In this document: in pieces, positions 18,639 through 59,076 of the stretch
How positions within the stretch are numbered: the stretch's first letter is position 1
How the letters are laid out: every line of letters begins with the position of its first letter
Translations under genes and position numbers: made by a program
The notes under the pieces: model-generated
Databases searched by the model: none
Told to the model about the DNA's origin: nothing
What the model saw: only the letters and a program-made list of their open reading frames with translations
NCBI GenBank assembly: GCA_963707955.1
Contig: OY970176.1
Coordinates: 352,001-416,000 of the forward strand
Length of the DNA stretch: 64,000 bases
Direction: 5' to 3'
Origin: Candidatus Bathyarchaeota archaeon
GTDB lineage: Archaea; Thermoproteota; Bathyarchaeia; Bathyarchaeales; Bathycorpusculaceae

Positions 18639-18963
18639 ACGCCTTTCTTGGAAAAGAACACTGCTGCCAAAAAGAAAAAGGAAGAAGACTATGCTGTGTG
18701 CCCAAAGTTGGCAAGTATTACTATGTCAAAACCTTCGACCGTGCCGTCGCCGTTCAGATCGGCTTCGGGATTCCAGTTTGGATCTCCGGGGTGAGCACCG
18801 AAGGCTTTAGCAGCCAATATTGCATCGCGCGCGCTGAGACTATTATAAGCGTTCTAGAATAGTCCTCTATCGAAAATCCACAGCTCCTATGGTCGAGTTA
18901 AGGGTCGGCAAACAAACCTGGATGTTGACCCGAGCAGCCAATTTCCCTTTTCAAACCGATACA

Positions 18964-20226
18964 TCATTGCCGAGCATCGGAGGCAGCAGTTTTGGTCAAT
19001 CCGCGCAACATCTCCGTCAATCTACCCGCCGAAACCTCTGACCGTACTCCCCTTGAACTGAAATGAGTCGACGAGGCTTGAAAACCTTCTTTTCGCAACG
19101 CTTCGATGACAACCTTGACAGGTGGAACTGGCAGGTTTAGGACATCACACATCTTGTCAATCACAAAGTACGTGAACGGAGCGCTAGACTCACTCTTGAT
19201 CAAGCTCAACGTTTTCGCTATTTTTACCCCAAATCTTAGCCTCCTTTTTCGACTTTCCTGTTCCATCATATCGCAGAAACCAGTGTCAAACAACTTCCCG
19301 AGCCACAGAGGGCCAGCAGCCCTCAGCCTTGAGCCGCACTCTCTGCACTCTCTCGAATGATCAACTTCGAACAGGCCCTTTTTGGTTTCCCTGTGGAAGC
19401 ATTTGAAGCAGTGTAGGACAAAACCCATGTTTCCCATGCTTTCATCAGCGCTTTTTGCTCCATACTTCACGGTTGCGTAAACCCTAGCGTAATGTTCTCC
19501 CCGATGCGTGAAGACCACGTTCACGCCTAGATCGTGCTTAGCAGCTACGGTGGTCAGACATCCAGCTATCAGTCTCGCAGCTAGTTCATGGCAGTATTCG
19601 GTTCGCAGAGGGTTTCCACCGTATTTTCTCATACATGCTCTTGGGTGAATCCCACACAGAGATGCCATGTCAGTAGCTGTAAGAGCAAGAAGACCCCCAT
19701 CACGCAGGGCGCGAACCGCGGAATCGAGGAATGGCACTGGGGAGCCGAAGGGGTCGATATCTATGAAGTCAAACCGCATGTGCGGAGCGCTGTAACTGCT
19801 CAGGACAAAGTTTGCTTCTTTCTTTGTCACGGTAATGCAATTAGCAAGACCGTTCATCTGCACGTTGTAACTTGCAAGGCGGAAAGCCTGCTCATTGATG
19901 TCGTTCAACACAGTTTTTCCCACTCCTTCGACTTCCACGGCAAATCGTATGCCTCTCAAGCCGCAGCCAGTCAAGGGTTCGCACACAGAGATCTTGCGCT
20001 CAATTTTTCTCTGATACGCTTGTAGTGCCAGAACAGCTAAGTCGCGATTAAATTCCATGACGGGGTTGTAGAACACAGGGGCCTTGGAAGGCGCATAATC
20101 AGAAGGCAGCTTCACGAACGCCTTAAGTTCGGGAACCAAAACCTTGACTCTGCCCTCTTCGATGATCTGTGTAGGAAAATTCGGTTTGAAACTCTCAAGA
20201 ATCACGTTGCGGTTGTTCCTCAACAT
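18964..20226 (-). CDS. trm1: tRNA (guanine-26 N2)-dimethyltransferase
   Basis: VFYNPVMEFNRD, DIDPFGSP, ALTATD, CFKC..CRECG, GPLWLG. Confidence 0.93.
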   Translation of the reverse strand: MLRNNRNVILESFKPNFPTQIIEEGRVKVLVPELKAFVKLPSDYAPSKAPVFYNPVMEFNRDLAVLALQAYQRKIERKISVCEPLTGCGLRGIRFAVEVEGVGKTVLNDINEQAFRLASYNVQMNGLANCITVTKKEANFVLSSYSAPHMRFDFIDIDPFGSPVPFLDSAVRALRDGGLLALTATDMASLCGIHPRACMRKYGGNPLRTEYCHELAARLIAGCLTTVAAKHDLGVNVVFTHRGEHYARVYATVKYGAKSADESMGNMGFVLHCFKCFHRETKKGLFEVDHSRECRECGSRLRAAGPLWLGKLFDTGFCDMMEQESRKRRLRFGVKIAKTLSLIKSESSAPFTYFVIDKMCDVLNLPVPPVKVVIEALRKEGFQASSTHFSSRGVRSEVSAGRLTEMLRGLTKTAASDARQ

Positions 20227-20264
20227 GGTTACGGAAAACTCTTTAAGACAATATTAGACTTCTG

Positions 20265-20840
20265 GTGTTGAGCGAAGAACAGTTGAAGAAACGTCTGTTA
20301 CTCATAACAGGCAGTCCAGGCGTCGGCAAAACAACTCTTTTGCTGAAGGTTATTGAGGCCTTGAAAGCTAAGGGTTACAGGGTCGGAGGAATGATAAGCC
20401 GTGATGTTCGCATGTCTGGAAGTCGCGTCGGTTTCGAGGTAACGGACTTGAACAGTAACAAGAAGGGTTGGCTAGCGAGCGTGCACCAAGAACGGGGCCC
20501 GCAAGTTGGAAAATACCGCGTTGACATTGATGACCTGAATGAGGTAGGTGTGAAAGCTATACTGGAAGCTTGTGAAAAACTTGACGTTGTCGTCATTGAC
20601 GAGATTGGACCAATGGAGCTCTTTTCAGAACAGTTCAGGGAAACTGTCAAAAAGGCTGTTGAAAGCAAGAGGCTCGTTGTTTCTACGATTCACCGGAAAA
20701 TGGGTAACGAGTTGATAGACAGTATAAAGAAAAGAGAAGACGCTAAAATACACATTCTCACTTACGTTAACAGGGAGCATGTGCTTGAAACAATCATTAG
20801 AGAGGCATTGGACTTTCTGTGGAAGGTTGATGCTGAATAA
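20265..20840 (+). CDS. Nucleoside-triphosphatase (THEP1/NTPase_1)
   Basis: GSPGVGKTT, RVGF, VGKY.V, IDEIGPME. Confidence 0.9.
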   Translation: MLSEEQLKKRLLLITGSPGVGKTTLLLKVIEALKAKGYRVGGMISRDVRMSGSRVGFEVTDLNSNKKGWLASVHQERGPQVGKYRVDIDDLNEVGVKAILEACEKLDVVVIDEIGPMELFSEQFRETVKKAVESKRLVVSTIHRKMGNELIDSIKKREDAKIHILTYVNREHVLETIIREALDFLWKVDAE

Positions 20841-20891
20841 AGGGTTATAACTTTGAAGCCAAAATAACTCTTGAAGAAGAGACTGGTTCTG

Positions 20892-25546: not shown

Positions 25547-26348
25547 CCAGCTTAGGACCAAGCCCATCATCAACATAAGAGCAGAGAGCCCAACGGTCAA
25601 GACTTTTGTCTTCAAAGACGAACAGTGTGCAAGGGCCAAGGCGGGCCAATTCTTGATGCTGTGGATTCCCGGCGTGGATGAGATCCCGCTGAGCATCATG
25701 GATGCGAGAGAGGATGGAAGAGTCGCTGTTTCCGTCAAGGCTTTGGGTGAAGCCACTGTAGCGTTGCACCAGAAAAGAGTAGGCGAACCTGTCGGCGTGC
25801 GAGGCCCGTTTGGCAATAGCTTCACATTGAACGGACGCAAACCTCTCATAGTAGGCGGTGGGACGGGGATCGCGCCGCTCATGTTTTTGACCAGGAGGTT
25901 GATTTCAAAGGCAGTGAGCACGACGTTTGTGTTGGGGGCAAAGACAAGAGACGAATTGCTGTTCAGAAGCGAATTGGAAAAGCTTGGAGCGAAAAGGGTT
26001 CGTCTTGTGACGTCGACGGAGGACGGGAACTGCGGCCTCACGGGATTGTGCACTGAACCTTTAGAGCAGATGTTGGCTAGAGAAAGGTTTGACGTGATCT
26101 ACGTTTGTGGGCCCGAGCAGATGATACTGAAGGTTTTTGAGTTGGCTGAACAGCGCGGCGCAGAGATGCAGGCAAGCTTGGAACGCCTGATGCGATGCGC
26201 CATCGGCCTGTGTGGAAGCTGTGTGATCGGCAAGTACAGAGTCTGCGCGGACGGACCCGTGTTCACTTCAAAACAGCTTAGGCATGTTAGGAACGAGTTC
26301 GGTTTATCCAAGCGGGACCGATGCGGAAAAAAGGTGCCGCTCGACTGA
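25515..26348 (+). CDS. pyrK: Dihydroorotate dehydrogenase electron-transfer subunit
   Basis: GQFLM, RGPFG, GGGTGIAP, CGP, MRCAIGLCGSC...VCADGPVF. Confidence 0.93.
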   Translation: MKSLVCHTAANQLRTKPIINIRAESPTVKTFVFKDEQCARAKAGQFLMLWIPGVDEIPLSIMDAREDGRVAVSVKALGEATVALHQKRVGEPVGVRGPFGNSFTLNGRKPLIVGGGTGIAPLMFLTRRLISKAVSTTFVLGAKTRDELLFRSELEKLGAKRVRLVTSTEDGNCGLTGLCTEPLEQMLARERFDVIYVCGPEQMILKVFELAEQRGAEMQASLERLMRCAIGLCGSCVIGKYRVCADGPVFTSKQLRHVRNEFGLSKRDRCGKKVPLD

Positions 26349-26381
26349 GCCTGAGCGGTGTCGATACGAATTTGTGGAATA

Positions 26382-26543
26382 CGCTACATCCCTGTATTCG
26401 CGTTTTTCCCCTTCTATTCCACCCTCCCCCTCCCCCCTAGGGTACTAGTACTGCATGTAGCCATTGGGCAAGGCCCTACTGACTTGACGCGGGTCTCAAG
26501 CCAAGCGCGTATCGAGGTCTTGGGGCAGAGTCTCGGCAAGGGT
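26382..26543 (+). repeat. Dispersed ~160-bp repeat, copy B
   Basis: Inverted homolog of 9921-10077. Confidence 0.85.
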
Positions 26544-26626
26544 AGTGACTGTCAATGCGCTCAACCGTCACGCGTATTCTGGTTTCATCTGCCCCATTCA
26601 GAGCCTGTCAACTTGCCTGTCCCTTC

Positions 26627-26833
26627 TAGCGCGCATGCTTGTTCCTAAATTCCTAGATTCCGATCAAGAGGAAGGCATGACGTTTTTCGATGGTGACCGT
26701 CACGGTTCGGCTGGGTTCTTGCTTGCTCACACCCTCCCCCCCGGGTATCCTATATGATCCAAATATGATTGAAGAGCAAAATGAGCAGCACAAGCCACTT
26801 CCCAAAAGAATTCAGGAACACGCTAACGCGCGC
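26627..26833. mobile_element. MITE-like element related to the IS at 37078
   Basis: Left end TAGCGCGCATGCTTGTTCCTAAATTC is nearly identical to the IS left end; right end (rc) GCGCGCGTTAGCGTGTTCCTGAATTC. Confidence 0.65.
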
Positions 26834-26985
26834 ATTGGATAATCTGTTTCTCGACACTTTTTGCTGACAAGCCAGTTCAGCTTTTCAGTTTGTGGATGTT
26901 CAAACAGGTTTCCTACCCTTAGAAAGCCGGCGAGTCTACATTGAACAGCTGGATTACGTGCCGAGGCCGAAACGGGAGTTGATGC

Positions 26986-27165
26986 TTATTCCTTTACTTG
27001 CTTGTGTCTGGAAACACGCCAAGCATTGAGCCAAAGAAAAACAGCCCAGACAGACACTATTACCCAATTGATTACTGATAAGGACAGGAGGTTGAAAATC
27101 AAGAACGATAAGGACAAAGTTAAGAATATGCCGACAATGAAGGCAAAAGGACTGTCTTTCCTCAA
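26986..27165 (-). CDS. Small membrane protein (59 aa, 2 TM; missing from ORF track)
   Basis: TTG start after AGGGGT; MRKDSPFAFIVGIFLTLSLSFLIF...WVIVSVWAVFLWLNAWR. Confidence 0.5.
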   Translation of the reverse strand: MRKDSPFAFIVGIFLTLSLSFLIFNLLSLSVINWVIVSVWAVFLWLNAWRVSRHKQVKE

Positions 27166-27320
27166 TTTACCCCTAACGATAAGTACTTTCTGCTATCCTA
27201 TAAGCATTCGTTCACGGCTCGATAGCGCGCGCGGGGTCAGCCCTTCCTCAGGCGTTCACGCAAAACTTTTCAAACACTGACTGATTTGCACTGGACCTGC
27301 GAGTGCGAGCATGCGCAACG

Positions 27321-27590
27321 TCATTCTTCACCAGTTATTTCCAAGATCACTCTTCCCTTAGGGTCTGGGCATTCCACGTCGATAACCTTGGGTAGCCAAT
27401 CGTTGGGTTCATCTGTTTTTCTCTGCTTAGCTGGCAGCAGTGGAAGCAGGCTGGAGAGGGCATAAATGCAAAAGTGCTTGTTCTCTCCGGGGAAGCTCAG
27501 TTTTCCGCCTTCAAGTCTGAAGCAGTCTCCGACTTTATGCGTGTCGCACGAACCACCGATTGCTTTAACTCTGACGATTAGAGTTTTCAT
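27321..27590 (-). CDS. TIGR04076-like protein
   Basis: GSC..HKVGD.F, FCIYAL..LLP, ECPDP. Confidence 0.75.
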   Translation of the reverse strand: MKTLIVRVKAIGGSCDTHKVGDCFRLEGGKLSFPGENKHFCIYALSSLLPLLPAKQRKTDEPNDWLPKVIDVECPDPKGRVILEITGEE

Positions 27591-27695
27591 GACGGTTCCA
27601 AAATGGATAAAAACAGCTTTCAACTTAAAGGTTTCTCACATAGAGTTTACCAACATCGTGTTGAACTTTCGTGGATGGAGACGTAGTTTTTCCAG

Positions 27696-28169
27696 ATGAA
27701 GAGAATATTGGTTAACGTTGACCGATGCTCTGGATGCAGAATGTGCGAATTAGCATGCTCGTTCAAACATGAAAAAGGGTTCAGGCCTTCCGCGTCGAGG
27801 ATAACCGTTTTGAAAGAGGACGGTTTAGGCTTCGACCTACCAGTCATGTGCTGGCACTGTAACCACTGCAAGCCAGCAGAAAGCTGCCCCGCAAACGCAT
27901 TGCAAAGAAACGCAGAAGGACTCATCTGCGTAGACGAAGAGAAGTGCACTGGCTGCGGTAACTGCGTTGAATTATGCCCTTCGGGCGCGATTAAACTTCA
28001 TCCCAATAAGCATATTCCTTTGCTATGCGACCAGTGCGGCGGAAGGCCGTTGTGTGTCGAAAAGTGCCCCACAAAAGCGTTAACGTACGCGGAAACGGAA
28101 AGACAGCAGCCTAAATCGTCGAACAGGGTTCTTGAAGAAACGTCTAGAAGGTGGAGGGTCACTGGGTAA
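27696..28169 (+). CDS. 4Fe-4S dicluster ferredoxin (AOR-associated)
   Basis: CSGCRMCELAC, CWHC, CTGCGNCVELCP, CDQC...CVEKCP. Confidence 0.9.
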   Translation: MKRILVNVDRCSGCRMCELACSFKHEKGFRPSASRITVLKEDGLGFDLPVMCWHCNHCKPAESCPANALQRNAEGLICVDEEKCTGCGNCVELCPSGAIKLHPNKHIPLLCDQCGGRPLCVEKCPTKALTYAETERQQPKSSNRVLEETSRRWRVTG

Positions 28170-30099
28170 GTATTTTGGCTACGCTGGCAGAATTCTCAGA
28201 GTAAACCTTACAAAGAACAAGGTTAGCATCAAGCCCACCGAAAAAAGATTGATAATGGAGTTTCTCGGTGGAAGAGGCTTCAACTCGAGGAGGCTCTACG
28301 AAGAAGTTCCCAAAGACGTCACTCCACTCTCCTCTGAGAACAAGCTCATGTTTGCGACGGGTCCTCTTGTCGGCACGGCTTTCCCTTTAGGAGCAAGATT
28401 CAACGTCAGCGCGAAGTCTCCGCTCACAGGAATACTGGGAGACTCAAATGCTGGAGGCCATTTTGCAGCGGAAATCAAGTTCGCCGGGTACGATCAGATA
28501 ATAGTTGAGGGAAGAAGCCCGAAGCCCTGCTACGTTTTCGTCCAAGACCAAGAAGTCAAAATCAAAGACGCAGAACATCTCGTGGGAAAAGACGTTTACG
28601 AAGCAACCGAAACCATAAGAAAAGATCTAGCGGACCGACACGTTCAAGTGGCAACGGTTGGTCCAGCAGCCGAAAACCTTGTCCTCTACGCGGGAATATT
28701 TGCTAATTTTGTTAGGCCGGCTGCCAGGACTGGAATGGGCACGGTTATGGCTTCCAAGAACCTGAAGGCCATAGCGCTGAGGGGAACGGGCAGCATCAAC
28801 ATCGCTGACTCCAATGCTTTCTGGAAAATCGTTGAAGAAGTGGAAAGAGAGACCTACGCTCATCCGCAGTACTGGCCGCGCAGAGAGATGGGAACGACCA
28901 GAATTCTAAGCCTCGCCGACAAGCTTGGGTTTCTGCCCACGAGACACTTCACCTCAGCCACTTTCGAGCACGCAGCCGAGGTGAGTGGTGAAAGATTGGC
29001 AAGAGAATACAACGTGAAGAACCGGGCATGCTTCTCATGCATAGTTCCGTGCAGCAGGATCTACACGATAAGAGAAGGAGATTACGCTGGCCTTCACGGT
29101 GAAGGACCGGAGTACGAGGCCCTGAGCAGTTTCACTGCCAGAGTTGGAAACGCAAACCTGAACCTGGCGTTGAAGGCTGTTGACCTAACAAACAGGCTGG
29201 GCCTGGACGCGATAACAACCGCCGAATGCATCGCCTGGGCAATGGAGCTCTATGAAAGAGGGCAGTTGACGAAAAAGGAAACAGGCGGGCTTGAACTGAA
29301 ATGGGGTAACGAAGAGGCAATACTCGGGCTGATCGCAAAAATAGCTTACCGAGACGGGTTTGGAGACCTGCTTGCTGACGGAGTGAAGAAAGCAGCCGAA
29401 AAACTTGGAAAGGGAAAGGAAATAGCTTTTCACGTGAAGGGCCTAGAGCTCATTCAGGCTGACCCTCGAGGCTTGAAGGGTTACGGCTTAGGCTACGCGG
29501 TCTCAAGCAGGGGAGCAGACCATTTGAGGTCCGAGCCTTTCCTAGAGCTAAGCGACGACCCAGACAAAGGCTTGAAAATGTTCGGCGTCCGCGAAGCAAC
29601 TCAGAGGCTCGCCTACAGAGGAAAGGGCAAACTGATACGTTACTGCGAAAACTGGTGCGCAATAATAGACTCCTTGGAAATCTGCAAAAACCTGGCCGAA
29701 AACATGGAACTCCTGCCCCTGGACAGAGCAGCCGAGATAACGAAGGCCGCAACGGGCTTTCCCTTCACAGAAGACATGATGTATGAAATCGGAGAAAGAA
29801 TAGTCAACCTTGAAAGAGCCTATCTTATCCGAGAAGGAATCACGAGAAAAGACGACTACTTACCAGCAAGATTCTTGAACGAACCTCTACCCGACGGAAA
29901 CTCGAAAGGATCAGTGTTCGAGATGGAGCCCATGCTTGATGAATACTATATGGAAAGAGGATGGAACTCCAACGGAGTCCCGAAAACAGAAAAACTGAGA
30001 GAAACGCGCCTAGAATACGTAATCCAAGATTTGAAAAGAAGCGCCATTCGAACCACGAAGAAAAAGAAAGTTAAAAAGTATGTAGAGAAAAATTATTAA
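28132..30099 (+). CDS. aor: Aldehyde:ferredoxin oxidoreductase family (tungstopterin)
   Basis: GYAGRILRVNL, KSPLTG..DSNAGG, RTGMG.VM.SKNLKAI, CFSC.VPC, EGPEYE, RGADH, DEYY.ERGW; start possibly CTG at 28162. Confidence 0.9.
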   Translation: MKKRLEGGGSLGKYFGYAGRILRVNLTKNKVSIKPTEKRLIMEFLGGRGFNSRRLYEEVPKDVTPLSSENKLMFATGPLVGTAFPLGARFNVSAKSPLTGILGDSNAGGHFAAEIKFAGYDQIIVEGRSPKPCYVFVQDQEVKIKDAEHLVGKDVYEATETIRKDLADRHVQVATVGPAAENLVLYAGIFANFVRPAARTGMGTVMASKNLKAIALRGTGSINIADSNAFWKIVEEVERETYAHPQYWPRREMGTTRILSLADKLGFLPTRHFTSATFEHAAEVSGERLAREYNVKNRACFSCIVPCSRIYTIREGDYAGLHGEGPEYEALSSFTARVGNANLNLALKAVDLTNRLGLDAITTAECIAWAMELYERGQLTKKETGGLELKWGNEEAILGLIAKIAYRDGFGDLLADGVKKAAEKLGKGKEIAFHVKGLELIQADPRGLKGYGLGYAVSSRGADHLRSEPFLELSDDPDKGLKMFGVREATQRLAYRGKGKLIRYCENWCAIIDSLEICKNLAENMELLPLDRAAEITKAATGFPFTEDMMYEIGERIVNLERAYLIREGITRKDDYLPARFLNEPLPDGNSKGSVFEMEPMLDEYYMERGWNSNGVPKTEKLRETRLEYVIQDLKRSAIRTTKKKKVKKYVEKNY

Positions 30100-30111
30100 A
30101 AACGCGCGCCC

Positions 30112-30252
30112 CATGTCGGCAATCGCATTCAAGGTGCTAACTATCATTGCCCAGCGTGCAAGATTTGCGTCTGCTTCGGCTGCGGGTTGAAAATGATAAG
30201 CAAAGAAAACTATCCTCTCAAGTGCCCAAAGTGTGGCGCAAAACTTCAATAA
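30112..30252 (+). pseudogene. Start-less Cys-rich zinc-finger ORF fragment
   Basis: HVGNRIQGANYHCPACKICVCFGCG...LKCPKCGAKLQ*; no start codon upstream of the Cys motifs; bracketed by CG runs. Confidence 0.55.
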
Positions 30253-30385
30253 CAGCGCGCGCCTCGTGTCTCTTTGCTCAAAATGCGTCATCAAAAAATT
30301 ACCAAGCAAATCAATTTAGGAACGGATACGCACACGAACTGTTAGCGTCAAGGCTTACATAGTTCTTGTATGAACAGACAGGAAT

Positions 30386-31812
30386 CTAATCGAACCTGAC
30401 TCCTCGCCTAATTTCACTGATAACAGTTTTGATCCTAGGAATGTTGGTAAGAAGTACGGCGGTTCTGTAATGGCTCTTGGCCATTCTCGTTATTTGTTTT
30501 AGAAGTCTTCGGGGCGAAGATAGAATTCTCGGAAATAATCGTATATCATGGAGCGAATTTCTTCATATGGAACAGTGTTTGGCGAAACATCTGGCACGTA
30601 AACGCTTGCCTCCCAACACTCATCCTCATTGATCAGCCCCCTTTCCACCAAGTCATTCCAAATCTTTGTTCCAGAAATAGCACTGAGAATGTTTAAGGAG
30701 GGTATATCAATGTCTAGTTTTTGCGCAAACTTTAACGTGTTTTCTACTTCGCTTTTAGTTTCATCGGGAGCCCCAACTATAAACGAACCTACGATGATGT
30801 CTACACCAGCCTTTCTGGCTTTGCGTACAGCGTTGACGGATTCTTCAGGGGTTATCCCTTTATTGTAGTAATCTAGAATTCTCTGGTTCGCGCTTTCTAT
30901 CCCGAAATAAAGATTACTAAACCCAGCCTTCACCATGTGTCTAAGCATGTCGTATTCAGAGTTGTCAACTCTTGAATCACAAAACCATCGAATGCCCAAT
31001 CCTTCCTTCCTGATTTTCTGACAAAGCGTCTTGACTCTTTTTCTGTTTAGGGTAAAATTGTCGTCGACCAACAGAATTTCCTCATAACCTTCGCTTCGAA
31101 GCATTTGTAATTCGCTCATGATATTCTCAACAGACCTCGGTCTCCAAACCCCTCCAACAAATTTCCGGCATCCACAAAAAGCACAATGGAAAGAGCATCC
31201 CCTCGATGAAAGAAAGGTCGTAAACTTTCTCGTGGCAACCTTCACTCCGAAAATCGTTGATGTATATTCAGCATTCATCAGGTGCCGATCAGGAAAAGGA
31301 AGCTCATTAATGTCTTTGATGAGAGGCCTATCTGGAGTAGAAACGATTTCCCCATTATGCCTGAACGTTATACCGTCAACTTTTCGGATATCGCCTCCTT
31401 TCTCCAAACACTTTGCAAGATTAAGGCTCGTGTATTCTCCCTCTCCTCGAACGATCACGTCAACACAGGGATACTTTCTGAGAATCCTATTGTCGTTGAA
31501 GGTCGCGTGGTAGTTTCCCATAACAATCGTGACATTGGGATTCCATTCCTTCACGAGCTCCGCAATCTTCGGCGCCTCCGTCGCAGCACTCTGCAAAACC
31601 GAAAAACCCAAGATACCAGGATCTTCCTTCTTGACCCAGCTCAAAGCTTGCTCACGAGAGAAACCCTTTGCCGTTTGATCCAGCAAGGAAACATCTATCC
31701 CCTCCTTCGTCAGAACGCCCGCGATGTACAGCATACCCAACGGCGGCCAAGCCTTTGCGCACATATCCGCACTGCCCGGAGCTTGGCTCGGGTTTATGAA
31801 TGAAAACTTCAG
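30386..31812 (-). CDS. B12-binding radical SAM protein, probable frameshift near 3' end
   Basis: PPLG, GNYHAT, RGEGE, SRGCSFHCAFC, DDNFT, GIES; annotated stop at 30499, but the shifted frame continues RLLKQITRMAKS...VRFD* to 30386; likely CTG start after GAGGTGA. Confidence 0.85.
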
Positions 31813-32166
31813 ACAGCTCACCTCACACAATGCATGAACCGCGCGCCCCGGTTCTGCCAAGTCTTCGGTTGATGCTTCTCAAGCAATTCTGTTCTTTACC
31901 CATGTTTTCTCACATCACTCTTTAACTGTCCATAGTAATTTTCCAAAATAAAGCTGTTGCATGTACTCTTTATATTGCATAACGTCTCTTGGGCTATTTA
32001 CAGTGACTGCGTGAGCCCGCGCGCGCGATGTGTGCGCAATAAGGCGCTGTGGGCCATAGTGGTTGGCAGAAAGACATAACTCAACTCTGCTGTAAATTGG
32101 AGATTAGCGCGCGCGAAAGTCTTTTAATGAGAACCTGACTCGCTTGATCTTGAGGAGCCATTCAAC

Positions 32167-33660
32167 TTGCGAAATGACGTCATACTCACTGCTGATAGCA
32201 CGCTGATGAGTAATTATCGTCGCAACGAATTCTTGGGCTTCGGCACATGCGCGCCTCCGAACTTCATTCCGGACGAGCTATACAAGTGGCTTTTCTTCCC
32301 TCCCATCCAGCAGGTAGATGACGTTCCGGCAGCCGCCCCGTACGGTTTGAGAAAGATCGAAGCTCAACTATTGAGCGAAGGATTCGACGTTCGAACCGTT
32401 TCGCCTAATCATCTTAAGAATCATGTGGCCGAAGCGAAGGTGCTAGGCATACACGTCATGGACCCGTTTGGCTTAGGACCCGCCTCAAGCACCTTGGCAT
32501 TTATTCTTAACAAAGAGCCATTCCTTGCCAAGTACTTTCGCGTGTTGCTAAGTCAGCCGCCGGTTAGAAAGGCAAAAAAGAACGGCTTGAAAATCATCGT
32601 AGGGGGACCTGGAGCCTGGCAGTGCCGATACAGGCCAAAGTTTGTTGACAAATACGGGATCGACTGCATAATCGCAGGAGAAGCCGAGAAGTTTGTTGGA
32701 AAAATCTTCAAAGCGGCTATCGAAGGCCAGCCGGTACCGAAATATTACGAGTCCAACATCGAAGAGAGCCCAAAAGTGGAAGAGATTCCTGAAATCGTCA
32801 ATCCTTCAGTAAACGGCCTGGTAGAAATTGGCCGAGGATGCTGCAGAGGCTGCAAGTTCTGCAGTGTAACGATGAGGGCTTTGCGTTGGTACCCGATGGA
32901 AAAGATCCTCCGTGAAATCGACGTGAACATGAAGGTCGGTGGCATAGAAGGAACAATCCTCCATGCGGAGGATGTCATGCTCTACGGCTCCAAGAACACT
33001 TCGCCAAACGGTGAAAAACTCATCAAACTGCATGAAACGGTCGTCAAAAAATGCAAAGGAGTGACGTGGAGCCACTGTTCGCTGGCGGCTGTTGCAGCGG
33101 AACCGAAGCTTTTCTCAAAGACGGCCGAAATCATAAAACAGAAACAACCATGGTGGGGAGTTGAAATAGGCATTGAAACCGGCTCTCCGAGGCTGATAGG
33201 GAAAATCATGCACTTGAAGGCTCACCCGTTCAAGCCCGAAGAATGGCCCGAGGTTGTCCGAACAGGAATGGGGCTAATGCACGACAACGGACTCGTCCCT
33301 GCTGGCACGTTGATCGTGGGAACTCCTGAAGAAAAAGAAGAGGATCTAATAAAAACCATGGAACTACTAGACGACCTAAAGGGGATGAGAAGCCTCATCG
33401 TGCCACTATTCTTCGTTCCCATGGGAACACTGCAACATGAAGACTGGTTCAAAGGAACACAAATGACAGACCTGCACCGAGAACTGCTGATAAAGTGTTT
33501 TCAGCATGATTATTACTGGCTCTATAACCTAATGGATATGGCATTCGCTGGAAGATGGCAGGGAAAAGTGCTAGAGCCTTTCTTCAAGCTCTTCGCATAC
33601 ATAGTGAAATTCAAAGCAAGACAGTCTGGAATCAACCTTACTGTCGACGAACAGACTTAA
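32167..33660 (+). CDS. Radical SAM protein resembling the Grs/Gms (GDGT-modifying) family
   Basis: VILTAD, APYGLRKIEA, MDPFGLGPASST, GGPGAWQ, VEIGRGCCRGCKFC, GIETGS, VPLFFVP; family assignment is recalled from memory and not searched. Confidence 0.65.
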   Translation: MRNDVILTADSTLMSNYRRNEFLGFGTCAPPNFIPDELYKWLFFPPIQQVDDVPAAAPYGLRKIEAQLLSEGFDVRTVSPNHLKNHVAEAKVLGIHVMDPFGLGPASSTLAFILNKEPFLAKYFRVLLSQPPVRKAKKNGLKIIVGGPGAWQCRYRPKFVDKYGIDCIIAGEAEKFVGKIFKAAIEGQPVPKYYESNIEESPKVEEIPEIVNPSVNGLVEIGRGCCRGCKFCSVTMRALRWYPMEKILREIDVNMKVGGIEGTILHAEDVMLYGSKNTSPNGEKLIKLHETVVKKCKGVTWSHCSLAAVAAEPKLFSKTAEIIKQKQPWWGVEIGIETGSPRLIGKIMHLKAHPFKPEEWPEVVRTGMGLMHDNGLVPAGTLIVGTPEEKEEDLIKTMELLDDLKGMRSLIVPLFFVPMGTLQHEDWFKGTQMTDLHRELLIKCFQHDYYWLYNLMDMAFAGRWQGKVLEPFFKLFAYIVKFKARQSGINLTVDEQT

Positions 33661-33866
33661 GCGCACGCGGAAAATTTAAGATATAGACTTTAGCCGTTTA
33701 AAGACGCGTACGCCCATGATAATTCACCTAGGCATGCATTTAGCCACCTTTAGTGCAATCCAAGGAACAACGTAGAAATGATGACTTTTCCCCGATAACT
33801 TATTTTCAGCGGTCAACTTTGTCTTGGCTATGGCTGCTTTTACAAGGTTGCGCTGAACTTCTTTTG

Positions 33867-43194: not shown

Positions 43195-43347
43195 CGCGCG
43201 CTTACTAAAAAATAGTATTTCATACAGGCCCTTTTTGAAGGGAAACTCGCGCTAGCATCAGTATGCCAAGCCCTTGAGGCGGGTACATTTAAGGAAACAT
43301 TTTTCAACGGGAACAGTCAGTAAACCGCCACAGGGAGTTGCCATCAC

Positions 43348-43854: not shown

Positions 43855-43963
43855 AAACAGACACGGTGCAATCGTACCATGGGACCCCACATCAAGTAAA
43901 CAGAAGTAAACAGATGGAAAGGCACGCGAGCCATGTTACGGAGATCTATCAATGGAGCGTGCG

Positions 43964-44155
43964 CTACGGATTTGCGTTCTCTGAATGCAACTGTCCACCG
44001 GTTGCCCAGTTGGTCTTCGGCACTTCGTAGATGATGACGGTTACCGCTTCCCTGGGGATGCCCAGTTCCTCAAGCACCCTCGTTATCCCTTCAACGACTT
44101 TCTTCTTGTTCTCTTCACTCATACCAGCCCAAAGAGAGACCTGAACCACGGGCAA
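43964..44155 (-). CDS. 4-oxalocrotonate tautomerase family protein
   Basis: TTG start gives Pro1: MPVVQV...EVPKTNWATGG. Confidence 0.88.
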   Translation of the reverse strand: MPVVQVSLWAGMSEENKKKVVEGITRVLEELGIPREAVTVIIYEVPKTNWATGGQLHSENANP

Positions 44156-44332
44156 TTCAGCTACCCCATGTAATGATACCTTTTTCCACATATAAAGGCA
44201 CAGCGCGCGCTGTCCTCATCTAAGCCTGTTTAGCTTCGATTCCAGAGCTTTCAGTTCGCAACACGCTTTTCGACCACATACAAGAAGACTTTAATCTGCG
44301 GCTAATCACACGATGATTGAGGGTAAGGAGCG

Positions 44333-44674
44333 ATGGAAGAAAAAGATTACTTAAAAAGATTCAACCGCTTGCTTGTTTGGCCGACGTTGGTTTTGTTCAT
44401 AATCTTGGCAATCTCAGGGTACGGTATCGTAAACCCTGTTGTGGTTCGCGAATTAACCGGAGGTCTTTTTGCTGATCGCTACCTTTCATTGCGCGTTCAC
44501 ACGGATGTAGTTCTTCCTGCTTTGACGTTACTCATGATTCACGTATTGATTGCAATCAGGTCAACTCTGATTCGCTGGGGTGTAAAAGAGAGCAATCTTT
44601 TGAACGCTTTTCTGATTCTTTTAGGAGCTTTCACGGTCGCGTTGCTCGTTCTAATGCAGGACCTAGCGCCCTGA
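44333..44674 (+). CDS. 3-TM membrane protein with His residues (possible heme-b partner)
   Basis: ISGYG, LRVHT, MIHV; directly upstream of the Moco-domain gene. Confidence 0.55.
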   Translation: MEEKDYLKRFNRLLVWPTLVLFIILAISGYGIVNPVVVRELTGGLFADRYLSLRVHTDVVLPALTLLMIHVLIAIRSTLIRWGVKESNLLNAFLILLGAFTVALLVLMQDLAP

Positions 44675-44687
44675 GGAGCTGAAGAAG

Positions 44688-45953
44688 ATGGGAAAGAAGC
44701 TTGGAATAGCACATATGGTCGTAATAATGGTTTTTGCTCTGATTACCGTCCTACCTGTGCAGAGGGGTGCTGGCGCACTCCAAACATCTGGAGTGTTAAG
44801 GATTTACGGTTTAGTGAATAGGCCTCTGAACTTGACCTATGATGAACTGTTTTCTTTTCCGATGGTTTCGGAAGTGGCAGAATTGAAGTGTGTGGATGGT
44901 TTTCCAGACGTGACTGGCAACTGGACAGGAATACCGCTTTTCTACCTCCTGACCTTGGCCCAGATTAACTCAGATGCATACAAGGTTGTCACGTACGGCT
45001 CGGATGGGTTTTCATCAGACCTTCTGGTCGAAGACGCTCTGAGGCCCACAACTATCCTTGCTTTGGAAGACAACGGAACAACGAGCGCGAGCGCGATAGA
45101 ACCATTGCCACGCCTCATCGTTCCCAACAATTGGGGTTACAAATGGGTCGCTGAAGTGGATGCGATTGAAGTGGTGAACTATGATTACAAAGGGACTTGG
45201 GAGAGCAGCGGATATTCCGATAATGGGACCAGACCTGGCAGCACGGCCTTGCCATCGATAACGCCCCCCCTGCAAGAGTTGAACTTTGCCTTTGGCAACC
45301 TGACCTTCAACGTGGAAGCCTTCACAGACGTTTCAATCAGCTCCTACATGCTCGATCATTCGCAGAAGCAATTAAGTCTGAACGTAACTGTGCCTTCTGG
45401 AATAGGAGGCTTTGCTGATTTCATACTGCCGCAAGACTTTCTAAAAAGTCCATACAGTGTTACCTTGGATAACCAGGCAGTTGACGTCATTGAAGCTGAT
45501 CTGAGCAATCAGTCATACCTATACGCCTCTATCCCAGAAGGTTTCAACGCTGTGAAGATTGTTGGTGCTGGAGTTTTCGGATTTGCGCCTGAAATCGAGG
45601 TGAGTGCCAGCCAAATTGTCAACGTTGGAGAGACTGTCATTTTTGATGCAAGCAAATCTGCCGCCTATGGAACAATAGTGTCGTATGAGTGGAACTTCGG
45701 TGACGGCACTAATGGAACCGGAGCGGTTGTGTCACACTCATACAACAAACTGGGGACATACCAAGCAGAGCTCAACGTCACCGACAACAATGGTTTAAGC
45801 AGTTCCGAAACGTTGACAATAACCGTTGAAAACCCGCCAGAGTACATCCCCCTCGCTGTGAAGGTGCTTCTGGCAGCAGTTCTAGGTTTACTCATCTTGA
45901 TGTTTGCAGTTCTGGTGAGAGGCAGAAGAAAAGAGCGTGTACCTAAGCAATAG
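44688..45953 (+). CDS. Sulfite-oxidase-family molybdopterin domain fused to PKD domain and C-terminal anchor
   Basis: GLVNRPL, LKCVDG, WTGIPL, RLIVP..WGYKW, WESSGYS; PKD YEWNFGDG..HSY...GTY; TM tail. Confidence 0.8.
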   Translation: MGKKLGIAHMVVIMVFALITVLPVQRGAGALQTSGVLRIYGLVNRPLNLTYDELFSFPMVSEVAELKCVDGFPDVTGNWTGIPLFYLLTLAQINSDAYKVVTYGSDGFSSDLLVEDALRPTTILALEDNGTTSASAIEPLPRLIVPNNWGYKWVAEVDAIEVVNYDYKGTWESSGYSDNGTRPGSTALPSITPPLQELNFAFGNLTFNVEAFTDVSISSYMLDHSQKQLSLNVTVPSGIGGFADFILPQDFLKSPYSVTLDNQAVDVIEADLSNQSYLYASIPEGFNAVKIVGAGVFGFAPEIEVSASQIVNVGETVIFDASKSAAYGTIVSYEWNFGDGTNGTGAVVSHSYNKLGTYQAELNVTDNNGLSSSETLTITVENPPEYIPLAVKVLLAAVLGLLILMFAVLVRGRRKERVPKQ

Positions 45954-46074
45954 GGATTCAGTTATTGACGTTGTGTCAAAAGCAGTTCTCAGTACGTGCA
46001 CTGACGTCATGATTTAAGGCTGAAAGACTTCTCTTGCTTGTTTCCTGCATAACAAATTATGTAACGCGCGCGCT

Positions 46075-46243
46075 AATCGTAGAAAGTCCAACCTTCACTT
46101 GTCCTTGGATATTGGTTCTCCTTCTCAGAAGATTGACAAAGGGATTGTCCAAATCTCGCATCTCTTCGTTTATTCCCTCAAAAAAGAGGTGCGGGGCTCT
46201 ACTCATTACGCTTCAGCGAATTTAGGAACAGGCATACGCGCTG
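46075..46243 (-). mobile_element. Degenerate left-end fragment of the IS5/IS1182-like element
   Basis: rc CAGCGCGTATGCCTGTTCCTAAATTCG then GAGCCCCGCACCTCTTTTTTGAGG...GAAGAGATGCGAGA aligns with IS ~37080-37190. Confidence 0.6.
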
Positions 46244-46630: not shown

Positions 46631-46859
46631 AGTTTAGACACGAAAGATGCGCGCTCAAAGAACCGTTTGTTCTCGCGATTTCTCGACGAGGCATCCGAAA
46701 AGTTCGGAATCGATAACCGTCCAAACTCGCGCGATTTGTAATTCAAAAAGGTTATTTCCCAGTCTGTTGACGACATCTCCCGCACAATCCTCTCTTTTCT
46801 CTTCCTGCAGATAGACCTTTTGAATCCGCGTTTGTAATACTTTCTTCACGATCACTTCT

Positions 46860-47480: not shown

Positions 47481-47699
47481 CCAGATCACCCCTTTCGAAC
47501 TACTACGAAGGCAAAAATTAACCTTACCCTTAGCGCGCGCTAGCCGCTTAGATTGTCCTATGGAAAACAGGTCCCATATTCTAACGCGAGGCAGCACCCA
47601 TTACGATAGCCAGTAGCGCGCGTCTGTTTCTTCACGGCTGGTTACACCCCAACATTGCTATCGGCATTACTTGTAAGAAACAGTTTTCGCCCGCGCGCG

Positions 47700-48578: not shown

Positions 48579-48998
48579 AACAATCAAACTCCGCATTATC
48601 AGTTATTATAGTTCCTTATCAGCCGGCGCCCATCTGACAGTCCTACAGACGAAAGACCACAGAAAAAACGGATAATCAGGAAATCGGGCAATATCGCGCG
48701 CGTGCAAAAACTGGAAAGTCTCAAATCTTATATAGAAACTTAAAGATCTGCCAAAGGAAAACGAGTATTTCTTGAGGAACAGGCTTAGGCAGTCTGTAGG
48801 CAGAAACTTTGAGGTTCAACGGAGACGTATAGCAACGAAACTCGGAAATCATAGGCTTCAAAGAATCACCTTCCGAACCCTAGCGCGCGCAGAAACAGAC
48901 TTCGGAAAAAGTACTTCAATATACGCCGAAAGCAATTCAAAAAGGTTATATTCGGCCGAAACTACTCTGCTGTGTTTGCGGGTGCAATGTGATGCAAG

Positions 48999-51900: not shown

Positions 51901-52058
51901 AGCCGCATCTACTTCAGATGAAAGAACTTGTCCGCGCAAAAACCGTGCATCTACAAGGAAGCCGCGCAGAAAAAGAGATGCAATGGCACGAGTCTCAACT
52001 GGACGAAAAGAAAGTCTCGATTGCAATCTCTCCAGGAACAGCGAAGCAACCATCGTAG
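48999..52058 (+). CDS. ileS: Isoleucine--tRNA ligase
   Basis: EGPP, HVGH, GWDCQGLPVE, WTTMPFTL, TGVVH, WCISRER.WG, EGVDQTRGW, KMSKS. Confidence 0.96.
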   Translation: MTAKFKTDSEKGLTVEYRPLELEEEIRRFWEENHTQQRLMEAKEKNNKGLLGYVEGPPTLNGVPHVGHARGRVMKDLRYRWKTMQGYYVPFWGGWDCQGLPVELEVERQLGVKNKREFLDRVGEEHFIQECKKAIMKYQKAWVEADRKLGIFMDHSRAYWTYLDSYIEREWQYLKHAWDQGLLEEGHYVVAYCPGCQTSLSNAEVGYEDTYQLVEDPSLYFKFKIADKPNEYFLVWTTMPFTLITDTMLAVRPEAEYARVQVGDEVWILVKQRVEPVMKELGIEKCTISATVTGKSLENTKYEYPFREIVPKQVELEKSHPSVHRVVCEDFVDVDTATGVVHLSPGNGEEDFFAAQKRGVPIFAPFDDEVKFTGEGGKFCGVFARDTDYMVIEELRTRGLLVEVKPVKHEYPTCWRSHHKLVWLARKEYFLRTDKINGKVLEAAEKVAYFYDETKNRFISFLKEGKPWCISRERVWGVPLPVWKCRECGTKTIVASKKELLERAIEKPRGEFELHKPWVDRITFKCQKCGGTMHREDFVLDTWHNSGASPYARFTDEEFSKYVPADFLTEGVDQTRGWANSLLLEYVILTGKAEAPYKAFLFQGLAQDANGRKMSKSLGNVIEANKLLEKYSADICRFYSLRKCSPIDFISFDPNELGRRTYQILSTLYHLNRFFLQNAEFDNFNPQRQTLQWARKGKQLRNPDFWLLSKLQETIDTYTAKLETCEFNLAVAVLEDFVIESLSRLYVPMVRKELWTDDSETLDRRLAVYATLWHALRTMTVLFNPVTPYLSEALHQKVYRKLDPELPESVNFESWPESDKKLRNKTLEEDFQTLFKCVSLVYSARQNAGLKRRWPLDKLVVVAPEKVCAALKSVEELFLELANVKAADYATGKAPQHATSEGWMFASEGDVQIFLDVHRDERLLGAGLMRDLARRVQALRKELGYVPTDILEAVYISELDEESIRLLEPHLLQMKELVRAKTVHLQGSRAEKEMQWHESQLDEKKVSIAISPGTAKQPS

Positions 52059-52326
52059 CGCGCGCCGAAGTTGAAGGTCTGATAAAAAAAGGTTCTACCG
52101 AACAAGACAAGATGAATGGCCATTTCAGAGAGAAGAACCGGATTGAACATATCTTGGGACGTTTGAGGCATCGCACATGAGCCGCTAGTTTGTTTCAAAA
52201 TCAAATTAGTGTTCTAGCGTAAGTCGTACCGTTCATCCTACAAGTGATTTCTGATCTTCGAGCGCCAGAAAAATGAGACCGAAAGCTATATCTTTTCTTA
52301 ATCGACGTTCCTTCCGAAAGAAGGTA

Positions 52327-52401
52327 GGGCCGGTAGTTCAGCCTGGTATGAACGCCGCATTCGCAATGCGGAAGTCGTGGGTTCAAATCCCGCCCGGTCC
52401 A
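52327..52401 (+). tRNA. tRNA-Ala (anticodon CGC)
   Basis: Acceptor GGGCCGG/CCGGTCC with G3:U70; anticodon arm CCGCA-TTCGCAA-TGCGG; T loop TTCAAAT; CCA not encoded. Confidence 0.95.
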
Positions 52402-57281: not shown

Positions 57282-57464
57282 CCCCGACGCAGGAGCGCTC
57301 TCAAACAGGAGCTGCAACAGCAGGCCTAATCGGAGGAGTATCAGCAGTCGGAACGGGAGGTTTCCTTGTGCGCGCGCTCATAAGATACTAAGCAAACCGA
57401 TTAAGGAATAGGCATGCCCGCGTTCCTGAACATTTCAGTTCAACAAATGAGGATGCTACCGCGA

Positions 57465-57485
57465 AAAAAGAGAAAAAAGGGGTGT
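57465..57485 (-). terminator. Archaeal oligo-T terminator of the G1 peptidase gene
   Basis: rc CACCCCTTTTTTCTCTTTTTT just after the stop codon. Confidence 0.5.
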
Positions 57486-57498
57486 TGGCTCGCTAAAC

Positions 57499-58341
57499 TC
57501 ATGGACCTGCGCTTGCCCACGTAACGGAGAAGCTTGATCCATCAGTGGACAATAGTGATGGCACAGCTTTGGGGACGATAGTGTAGCCGTGTGTGCGGAA
57601 GTTATATGCAAGGGTAGCCATCGTTATCGTTTGAACGTTTAAGCCAAAGGATCCGATGTACCCCGTAACTCCGCCTATGGTGGCATAACAGGTTCCTGCA
57701 ACGTTTGTGTAATCTTGGCCAAAGTTTACCGTACCGAAGTTTGCAAGCGGCAAAACTCCTCTGTAGGATGATGGGGCCTCTGCGATCCATTCAGCTGAGG
57801 ATTCCGTGGCACCTGAAACTGTAGTCGGTTTACTGGTCCAAGAAGTTGATTTACTTGTAGTAGGATTAGTATCTGTTATAGAAACCACAAATTTGCTGCT
57901 CTGGTATGTCACGGTTGCAGAGATTACATCGCCCGGAGATATTGACAGTGCGGTTATTTGATACATTGGGTTCGGATAGAACTCATACCAAGCGTAGTAC
58001 AATGCTCTTCCATTCTGGATGTCGGAATCGGTTCCTATTTGCTCTACAGTATTTGAGCTGAAACCGTCAATGCCTACCCAGAAGGACGAATATGCAGTTG
58101 TTCTCCTATTGCCGGTGACTGTGGGGACTGTCCATGATCCTTGAACCGAAGTCACTGAGCCTGTTGAACCTGTTACGGCGTATCCGCTCCAATTGGTGCT
58201 GTACCAGCTGCTGCCATTGATGCTTTCTGTACTCATTCCCTGAGCCGTTATTAGGCTTGAGAGAGCTAATGCAGGGCAAAACAAGGCTAATAGTACGAGC
58301 GAGCCTACGAAAAATGTAGTTAGTGCAGTTGAGGTTTTCAT
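57499..58341 (-). CDS. Secreted glutamic peptidase, family G1 (eqolisin)
   Basis: STNWSGY, WVGIDG, catalytic-type EQIGT and SAEWIAEAP, AWYEFYP; signal peptide. Confidence 0.88.
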   Translation of the reverse strand: MKTSTALTTFFVGSLVLLALFCPALALSSLITAQGMSTESINGSSWYSTNWSGYAVTGSTGSVTSVQGSWTVPTVTGNRRTTAYSSFWVGIDGFSSNTVEQIGTDSDIQNGRALYYAWYEFYPNPMYQITALSISPGDVISATVTYQSSKFVVSITDTNPTTSKSTSWTSKPTTVSGATESSAEWIAEAPSSYRGVLPLANFGTVNFGQDYTNVAGTCYATIGGVTGYIGSFGLNVQTITMATLAYNFRTHGYTIVPKAVPSLLSTDGSSFSVTWASAGP

Positions 58342-59076
58342 AAAACTTCATCCTTTTCTTGTCTATAATTACACTGCAAGGACAGCCGCGTGGCTGGATA
58401 TAAATTTTTTTCAGAATTCGGCTGGGTCGCGCGTTGCCTTGTCCCCAAAATGGTTAAAAATGGTTACAAGTCCGTTTTTGCCTATTTAAACCTATAATGG
58501 AATTCTTTGAGCAACGCATTTCGGCTACCCTCAAAGACGGCAAACCGAGTTCACCGTGCTTCTGGGCGAAGTGGGTTTTACCCATAACACTTTGCAACAA
58601 CATCTTCACGGTTAGCAACTTGAGGCCTTGTTGTTAAGGAGAAAATGGCTTCAAACAATCTAGGAAGACGCCAATTCACCTACCACGTTCAATCTGCAGC
58701 AGCAAAGCAGGTGACGGCTGCACTTCAAAACCAGCGCGCGCTACGCGTTTTTTATTACAGTAGCATCGCCAGTCTGCTGCTTTGGTTCCTCGGTGCCTAA
58801 TGGAAGGAGTCAAACACGCGTGCGGACTGTGAGGGTGGCGACGTGAAACATGATTGTTTCTCCCATCTCCCCCTTAGCGAGGTGAGCATGGTGCCGCCAA
58901 CGAGATGAAGAATCCGCACGCGCCAAGTAAACTCTCGATAACATCAGACATATGCGTTCTGGAACGCAACTATAGAAAATTCATCTAGAACCTAGATCTA
59001 TTGCGCCAACCACTTCTTGGGACAAATCAGCGCAGGCGTGGCAGGGAGCATTCGTGAACTGAGGAAGAAAGAAAAG

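Follow-up and report, generated by a model that had tools for sequence, protein, structure and literature searches.

The window, i.e., the whole stretch of DNA analysed here, comprises 64,000 nucleotides of a Candidatus Bathyarchaeota genome (contig OY970176.1; G000:C1:352001-416000) and belongs to a single-contig assembly, G000, of 2,346,764 bp with a G+C content of 47.9%. It contains 25 runs of 8-10 bases, a run being defined as a maximal alternating C/G stretch and the main class as those of at least 8 bases, together with 30 further runs of 6-7 bases. In addition, it holds an IS5-like insertion sequence (IS) and a miniature inverted-repeat transposable element (MITE). The runs represent a genus-specific iterated palindrome with a directly visible link to transposon ends and rearrangement junctions. 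A preliminary description of the window had reported the runs and had stated that no description of such a motif was known; a literature full-text search (the motif with archaea; iterated palindrome, archaea and transposase), covering listings and the starts of abstracts, likewise gave none. The IS5-like transposon and the MITE family with GCGCGC inverted-repeat tips were overlooked in that description. The features referred to below are, by position in the window and with the strand where one was assigned:

18826-58741: span of the 25 runs of 8-10 bases
Run starts 1-13: 18826, 27225, 30255, 32018, 32107, 34081, 34203, 39975, 41357, 41504, 41677, 41946, 42575
Run starts 14-25: 43194, 44203, 46065, 47533, 47692, 48695, 48883, 52058, 54558, 55140, 57370, 58734
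18826-18834: run CGCGCGCGC, junction of a derived deletion of ~1.06 kb
26625-26833, plus strand: MITE of ~205 bp, TA-GCGCGC-ATGCTTGTTCCTAAATTC ... GGAACACGCTAA-CGCGCGC, from BLAST and inverted-repeat analysis
27225-27233: run GCGCGCGCG, right end of a 605-bp insertion
30078-43207: strain-specific segment of ~13 kb, absent from the relatives G001 and G007
37078-38161, plus strand: IS5-like IS, TA-GCGCGC-ATGCGTGTTCCTAAATTC ... GAACACACAT-GCGCGC-TA, from Pfam and terminal repeats
42575-43201, plus strand: NMNAT-like module, flanked by runs 42575-42584 and 43194-43201
44203-44210: run, three-genome divergence point
46210-46240, minus strand: solo inverted-repeat fragment of the MITE family (…GGAACAGGCATACGCGC), start of a block common with G001 (genome position 398230)
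52058-52065: run abutting the ileS stop

All 25 run starts of the preliminary description are exact, 24 of them lie past 27 kb as it had counted, and the perfect flanked palindrome that it placed at 47531 is present as TAGCGCGCGCTA (47531-47542). Its observation that runs abut stop codons also holds: the first G of the run at 52058 doubles as the G of the ileS TAG stop, and the NMNAT-like gene, when this copy is read (by eye) in the frame of G007, owes the last letter of its TAG stop to the opening base of the run at 43194. The octamer GCGCGCGC has 23 matches in the window, compared with a mean of 0.78 (sd 0.94, maximum 3) in 100 dinucleotide-preserving shuffles, none of which reaches 23. In G000 as a whole, the numbers of runs of lengths 4 to 11 are 7871, 1774, 510, 186, 267, 130, 56 and 2, with a bump at length 8; the five other alternating dinucleotides show a smooth fall, with 17-69 copies at that length. 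GCGCGCGC is the commonest octamer of the genome (464 copies), which bears out the earlier notion of an iterated palindrome resembling HIP1 of cyanobacteria.

The genome contains 455 runs of at least 8 bases, of which 231 are exactly GCGCGCGC, the 8-mer starting with G being the modal class. The bases next to these 231 solo 8-mers are mostly A at -1 (166) and T at +1 (162), followed by T at -2 (99) and A at +2 (88). This gives the consensus (T)A-GCGCGCGC-T(A), with conservation ending at ±2 bases. Among the 910 run flanks in G000, 35 cluster with another flank, and no positional signal of a terminal inverted repeat was found beside the solo 8-mers of this genome. Since the flanks are unlike one another and nothing is conserved further out, the solo runs are a short iterated palindrome set in unique DNA. 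The possibility that they form the core of a MITE, a repetitive extragenic palindromic (REP) element or another longer repeat was rejected because of these unique flanks. As alternating CG tracts of at least 8 bp, the runs of the window have the sequence characteristic of Z-DNA-forming (CG)n tracts.

Contigs carrying the runs were recovered from four public Logan sets of one study, which cover positions 26001-46000 including the runs and the IS. They differ from the window by 0-1 bases per listed piece of the best-matching set, and one of the sets is possibly the window's source. The motif is also present in metagenome-assembled genomes (MAGs) from other assemblies. An assembly artefact, a possibility raised in the preliminary description, is rejected because the runs are carried by public contigs (rather than reads) and by these other MAGs.

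It is evident that the motif is genus-specific. AGCGCGCGCT occurs in all 11 genus genomes, with 114 copies in G000 (3 for the reversed control) and 7-92 in the others, and is found in 0-1 copies outside the genus. Copies of GCGCGCGC range from 29 to 434 across the remaining 10 genus genomes, and reach at most 14 in the 8 other genera of the family. G024, a member of the order outside the genus, has 53 copies of GCGCGCGC; it was rejected as a carrier of the same motif, because these belong to longer overlapping tracts and AGCGCGCGCT is absent. The nearest named relatives of the IleRS protein, at no more than 92% identity, are MAGs of Candidatus Bathyarchaeia/Bathyarchaeota, with the exception of one differently labelled record.

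The placement of the runs was analysed with a crude map of greedy longest open reading frames (ORFs), which comprises 2566 ORFs and 85% of G000. The intergenic share is 78% for runs of 8 bases, 70% for 9 and 69% for 10-11, compared with 14% for 4-mers. Approximately 75% of the 455 runs are intergenic and about a quarter are located within crude ORFs, a point on which the preliminary description was overstated. Runs are present in 133 of 1215 tandem (10.9%), 79 of 432 convergent (18.3%) and 71 of 480 divergent (14.8%) intergenic regions, at densities of 0.9, 1.36 and 0.88 per kb, respectively, and no position preference was found inside the tandem intergenic regions of G000. The claim that runs punctuate almost every gene boundary thus describes the variable part of the window, but does not extend to the genome, where 11-18% of the intergenic regions have a run.

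The accessory character of the motif appears from a comparison of 400 kb of G000 with G007 (91% identity). The run density is 0.41 per kb in DNA found only in G000 and 0.056 per kb in shared blocks, a 7-fold difference, and within intergenic DNA alone the values are 1.46 and 0.32 per kb. The 7-fold higher density in strain-specific DNA is the opposite of the core-genome enrichment that marks a DNA uptake sequence (DUS/USS). At orthologous positions in G000 and G007, approximately 8 of 22 run sites are identical (a hand count over 30 rows, at 91% overall identity), which is near neutral.

The IS of the window is ~1.08 kb long and is flanked by TA on either side. The transposase gene is interrupted, its two ORFs (37154-37738 and 37755-38138) having Pfam matches to DUF772 (7.6e-11) and DDE_Tnp_1 (1.1e-11); an intact transposase of 328-329 residues is found in G003 (a 328-residue copy) and G009. 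The nearest NCBIfam families are IS1182 (140.4, cut-off 270) and IS5_4 (99.1, cut-off 140), all under their equivalog cut-offs. Both ends of the IS carry the terminal inverted repeat GCGCGCATG(C/T)GTGTTCC, and with its MITE-type repeats the IS represents the parent type of the MITEs, whose inverted repeats read (T)A-GCGCGC-(ATGCT or TAGCG)-TGTTCCTRAATTC. Window positions 26300-26900 have 47 BLAST matches in the genome, spanning the MITE and a second repeat at its left. Repeats of a ~250-bp family, beginning ...ATACGCTACATCCCTGTA, are located at 9833-10082 and 26371-26626, the latter copy abutting the GCGCGC-tipped MITE; the self-BLAST depth of this family reaches 22-24, at 73-82% identity.

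A second IS in G000, 43-54% identical to that of the window, is likewise GCGC-tipped, and a 1.75-kb composite with 168-bp GCGC-tipped repeats carries two unrelated genes (G000:C1:1559002-1560753; ORFs of 284 and 119 residues, the shorter one cysteine-rich). The transposon system consists of an autonomous IS of ~1.08 kb, MITEs of ~140-205 bp and composites with cargo genes. No multi-copy transposase was found at 60% identity among the 2137 ORFs of at least 100 residues in G000. All ends of these elements have a GCGC-type run at the extreme tip. The tip run is 6 bases long in 41 of 53 element ends, 7 in eight and 8 in four, and its outer bases (A at -1 in 37 of 53, T at -2 in 30 of 53) form the same context as that of the solo runs. 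A short target-site duplication may be represented by the TA at either side of the window IS or, with the tip taken to be GC, by the GCGC there; TA is present on both sides in 3 of 14 MITE pairs. Double-tip palindromes GCGCGCWWGCGCGC were considered as deletion products and rejected, as there are none in G000.

Repeat-tip matches number 52 in G000, 88 in G001, 26 in G003, 18 in G007 and 0-2 in each remaining member of the genus; of 20 genomes from outside it, G026 has 2 and the other 19 are free of them. Genus genomes with the transposase family have 126-197 runs per Mb (G000, G001, G003, G007 and G009; the incomplete G006 has 60), and those without it 26-141, values that are not independent because of the kinship of the genomes.

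The relation of the runs to rearrangements was examined by comparing the window by BLAST with syntenic pieces of G001 and G007, its 91-93% relatives. Ends of homologous blocks fall on runs at 18828/18831, 26627, 27223-27233, 43205-43208, 44207-44211, 46642, 52061/52066 and other positions, and flank mapping shows, for many runs, homology up to the run on one side and unrelated DNA on the other. At 18826, G001 has an intact gene of 394 codons (L083 1702..2886, minus strand), of which the window retains a remnant encoding the 42 C-terminal residues (18689..18817, minus strand). Since the gene is intact in G001 and only its last 42 codons are left in the window, the state of the window is a derived deletion; its breakpoints in G001 are merely CGC and GCGC. 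The 605-bp insertion, which starts with the MITE at 26625..26833 and ends with the run at 27225, corresponds to 7 bases in G001, and homology with both G001 and G007 resumes directly at this run.

The segment 30078-43207 contains 12 of the 25 runs, together with radical-SAM/B12 genes, the broken IS and the NMNAT-like module, and the corresponding empty site in G001 and G007 has no run. Three radical-SAM genes are located at 30499-31860, 32167-33660 and 39996-41294, two of them with B12-binding domains, and the segment also encodes two large proteins, of 546 and 577 residues, without a Pfam match. In G007 the NMNAT-like module lies in a different context (L114 about 1345-1999), bracketed by CGCGCGCG and GCGCGC. 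Compared with that copy, the window module lacks the final 31 bases, and its gene (CTP_transf_like, 42641-43194) has a one-base length difference near 43100 that breaks the frame, so that the ORF ends at 43117. At 44203 the left side is common to three genomes, while the right sides differ in the window, in G001 (which has the same run) and in G007 (GCGCG). The run at 52058 stands in place of ~500 bp present in G001 and G007, the start of which is also found in a third relative at 92% (L002); the ancestral left breakpoint at ileS reads GTA-GCGC-TAT. Upstream, the promoter-proximal sequence AATTCAAAAAGGTTAT of ileS is duplicated (46745-46765 and 48921-48945), and its copies bracket a 2.2-kb insertion that is missing from G001 and contains genes for a GNAT acetyltransferase and an aldo/keto reductase as well as five runs.

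Further alleles elsewhere in the genome connect runs and elements. At G000 position 1646166, a run of 9-10 bases in G000 corresponds to TGCGCGCG in G001 and to a 184-bp MITE, tipped at either end, in G007. The 1.75-kb composite of G000 has GCGCGC-A-GCGCGCGC at the same place in G007, and 601 bp of G000 are replaced in G007 by CGCGCGCTAG, which matches the repeat tip. At the MITE G000 597764-597969, G001 and G007 hold 2.25 kb without a run, and homology ends exactly at the outer edges of the tips. An old MITE common to the three genomes (G000 1023157) adjoins a 59-64-bp deletion in G007 that ends exactly at the tip, and another deletion in G007, of ~77 bp, ends exactly at GCGCGCGC. Ancestral GCGC-like tetramers lie at or near four breakpoints, i.e., GTA-GCGC-TAT (ileS), CTT-GCGC-TGA (18826), GTC-GCGG-ATG (G000 1702081) and TTA-GCGC-AG, the last located within the stretch lost in the 59-64-bp deletion, at its far end and ~3 bases from the aligned boundary. 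The background of GCGC in G000 is 8575 copies, or about one per 274 bp. When flank patterns were used across the genus to polarise the birth of runs, matches were confined to the three closest genomes or to a single additional one.

These results partly bear out the earlier suggestion that the runs are insertion or recombination sites involved in the shuffling of gene modules, in that runs are tied to insertion, deletion and synteny breakpoints, many of which fall exactly on a run. The association between runs and breakpoints is real, but is confined to a minority of events. For the 53 collinear gap events between G000 and G007:C1, a run of at least 6 bases lies within 5 bp of a breakpoint in 11 and a run of at least 8 bases in 8, compared with a chance of ~6-10% that is rough hand arithmetic rather than a computed null. 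Among 25 clean large indels, the short allele contains a run or a repeat-tip remnant in 6, and in 2 a run lies at the insert's end or close to it.

Taken together, the motif is most probably a trace of transposon activity rather than a signal at gene boundaries. More specifically, we tentatively favour, at somewhat less than an even chance, the explanation that the solo runs are scars, or the junction signature, of a GCGC-directed transposon system of the IS5-like DDE type. A 4-bp target duplication is typical of the IS5 family. According to the proposed mechanism, the transposase would insert at GCGC, preferably within TA-GCGC-TA, and generate such a duplication, the duplicated GCGC and the GC tip together giving the 6 bases at each side of the element. 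Loss of the element, or an adjacent deletion followed by its loss, would leave the two GCGC copies behind as (GC)4. Such scars could pile up in DNA where they are harmless, i.e., accessory and intergenic, and would afterwards be subject to neutral decay, and element copies and scars would together provide portable homology by which the genes between them may be shuffled into a mosaic of modules. The modal run length of 8, equal to 4+4, is counted in favour of the scar explanation, as are the outer context common to element tips and solo runs, the presence of an actual transposase, the homology breaks and deletions at the outer edges of tips, the alleles that pair a MITE or composite with a run, the ancestral GCGC-like tetramers near breakpoints, the excess of runs in DNA found only in G000 and the higher run density of genomes with the transposase family.

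A considerable number of observations weigh against it. Runs are abundant where elements are few or absent: G004 (93% complete, 20 contigs) has 128 copies of GCGCGCGC and 39 of AGCGCGCGCT with no repeat-tip match and no DDE_Tnp_1, and strict repeat-tip matches number 2 in G008 (254 copies of GCGCGCGC) and 1 in G009 (359 copies). Scars in these three genomes would need to be fossils or imported. The ~14 variable orthologous run sites between G000 and G007 (hand count) include no clean indel of 4, 8 or 10 bp; they are mostly substitutions, with some multi-base replacements of the same length. Neither a clean, never-occupied GCGC empty site for any MITE nor an empty site for the window IS was found, and no joint from excision of the IS or a MITE was seen in the contigs, which are mute on rare excision. 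Each of the MITE sites L119, L123, L124, L125 and L131 proved to be either a complex replacement or the edge of variable DNA, and the MITE at L127 is old and shared. The 12-mers expected from re-insertion into scars are absent from G000, where the maximum is 11, and the base-by-base arithmetic of the two window scars fits no simple scheme exactly. In addition, 17 of the 25 clean large indels are run-free, several of them with ordinary microhomology as judged by eye, and the MITE/solo-run site at 1646166 could just as well have arisen when the element inserted into a run already there (9+4 = 6+7).

That last point belongs to the main rival explanation, in which the order of events is reversed: runs of another, genus-wide origin would be the targets into which the IS5-like family inserts, centred and with a 4-bp duplication, so that the motif would carry the transposon as a passenger instead of deriving from it, comparable to bacterial ISs in REP palindromes. 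This is a serious possibility, although on the whole doubtful. It accounts for the run-rich genomes G004, G008 and G009 with few or no elements, for the presence of a run in G000 and G001 at 1646166 where only G007 has a MITE, and for the flank-length sums of the MITEs, which are 12 in 9 of 14 pairs and 13 in 4 of 14 and mirror the solo-run lengths 8 and 9. It does not explain the origin of the 455 runs, nor that of runs born at deletion junctions, and it is at odds with the adjacent deletions and homology breaks at the outer rather than the inner edge of the tip run, with the absence of a run in G001 and G007 where G000 has the MITE at 597764, and with GCGC tips in two divergent IS lineages. 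The runs may alternatively act as structural or recombination hotspots, (GC)4 being fragile or recombinogenic (Z-DNA-prone, with 8-10 bp of perfect identity whichever way it is oriented). Recombination by short homology, and breaks, at run edges would then make the DNA between runs an exchangeable cassette, with a dedicated recombinase being optional. Such behaviour would suit the run-bounded NMNAT-like module in two different contexts, the three right-hand sequences at 44203, the deletions that end exactly at run edges, and the 8 of 53 gap events with a run of at least 8 bases nearby (rough hand chance ~6%). We nevertheless consider a hotspot unlikely, because the birth of a run where the ancestor had only GCGC remains unexplained, because of the run-free majority of clean indels, and because no genus-specific recombinase was found in searches limited to Y1 transposase (none in 31 genomes), DDE_Tnp_1 and C5 methylase. 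A related idea, which we rate as quite improbable, is that (GC)4 constitutes a minimal, actively used recombination site, with one enzyme recognising the 8-10-bp palindrome and cutting at its edges; candidates for this enzyme would be the IS5-like transposase, if it works on bare tips, and another partner. If so, the inter-run DNA would be a mobilisable cassette, shuffled as in integrons but without a structured attC and with each junction permanently marked.

The two remaining explanations had been put forward in the preliminary description and are both disfavoured. A mutation or repair bias of the HIP1 type, in which near-cognate octamers of alternating pyrimidine and purine are driven to GCGCGCGC, or methylated runs decay, by methyltransferase-linked short-patch repair, could produce the transition-only orthologous pairs CGCGCGCG/TGCACATG, GCGCGCGC/GCACACGC and GCGCGCGCG/GCACGTGCG, and the one-off transition neighbours at ~2.0 times expectation compared with ~1.3 times for transversions (hand averages). 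However, the C5-methyltransferase family PF00145 is absent from G000 and present in 2 of 10 other genus genomes, N4/N6 methylases lying outside this search. Furthermore, GCGC, CGCG and CpG occur at 1.05, 1.06 and 0.95 of expectation, and the runs at indel junctions and element tips are left unexplained. An origin in m5C methylation was rejected on the absence of PF00145 from G000 and these near-expected frequencies, and a methylation-linked bias is very improbable. C5 DNA methyltransferase genes were located in G001 (L105 G001:C7:4931-5887; G001:C6:37304-38281) and G007 (L106 G007:C6:18719-19702). A functional boundary signal, bound by a chromatin or regulatory protein and demarcating transcription units, is equally improbable. 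The intergenic location, the runs abutting stops and the density in convergent regions (1.36 compared with 0.9 per kb) speak for it; most intergenic regions are run-free, only 11-18% having a run, the ~8 of ~22 sites kept indicate a conservation no higher than neutral, and the 7-fold density in strain-specific DNA and the lack of a position preference in tandem regions also speak against it.

Under the favoured scar explanation, these genomes would keep a legible record of past insertions, deletions and cassette swaps, which is rare for prokaryotes, whose cut-and-paste donor sites are commonly believed to disappear or to be restored. The scars would also provide a simple marker of accessory DNA in uncultured Bathyarchaeia, and the transposase would be one that targets 4 bp of G and C only. 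If instead the runs are targets or hotspots, the origin of the commonest octamer of the genus remains open, as for HIP1. Under any of these explanations the motif accounts for much of the module-level mosaicism of the window.

The closest known counterparts of the motif are HIP1, REP elements with REP-targeting ISs, the IS5 family and eukaryotic excision footprints. In cyanobacteria, HIP1 (GCGATCGC) occurs frequently within genes and is associated with cognate methyltransferases. Like HIP1, GCGCGCGC is an 8-bp perfect palindrome, lineage-specific and without extended flanks, which lies far above shuffle expectation and is the top or near-top octamer. Unlike HIP1, it has no cognate C5 methyltransferase in G000 according to the PF00145 search, is ~75% intergenic and accessory-enriched, and is tied to transposon ends and indel junctions. 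ISs and MITEs of the IS5 family use palindromic 4-bp targets and produce 4-bp duplications. The present system resembles them in its DUF772 and DDE_Tnp_1 transposase of 328 residues, its length of ~1.08 kb, its ~24-bp inverted repeats, its MITE derivatives and its cargo composites. It differs from them in that tips and flanks are GCGC runs, that hundreds of (GC)4 are element-free, and that all NCBIfam matches lie below the equivalog cut-offs.

REP elements and bacterial interspersed mosaic elements (BIMEs) are associated with REP-associated tyrosine transposases (RAYTs) and with REP-targeting ISs such as IS1397. The runs share with them the hundreds of short, lineage-specific intergenic palindromes with ISs in or on them. 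However, a motif of 8-10 bp is too short for the imperfect 20-40-nt hairpin palindrome of a REP, nothing being conserved beyond ±2 bases of the 8-mer, and there is no conserved flanking tetranucleotide beyond the A/T. No Y1/RAYT gene (PF01797) was found in 31 genomes, while the control was found in 6 of 14, and a REP/RAYT system was rejected on this basis. Excision footprints of Tc1/mariner, hAT and P elements are eukaryotic and retain target duplications. The proposed likeness to these is a short, constant or palindromic scar composed of duplicated target and terminal bases; in the contigs covering the window, excision was not observed. To our knowledge, no genome-wide accumulation of excision footprints has been described in prokaryotes. 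Integron attC and pdif sites are likewise short, recombination-associated sites that bracket single-gene modules in different contexts. The runs differ from them in being an 8-bp palindrome without structured arms, with modules that are scattered rather than gathered in one array; no search for an integrase or Xer site was made.

Several other features lie near the runs. (GT)n/(CA)n tracts of alternating purine and pyrimidine, at 41486-41511 and 42547-42584, lead into or near two CG runs and constitute a 19-nt inverted pair ~1 kb apart. An unrelated MITE-like element of ~450 bp is located at 42030-42480, with 26-nt inverted repeats (TTGGGTTTGGGGATAAAGTTTTATCC), and each of the five genus genomes searched contains many copies of its ends (85-100% identical). 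The sole Rfam match of the window is a tRNA gene at 52327-52401, ~260 bp downstream of ileS, with copies or relatives on several contigs of the genus.

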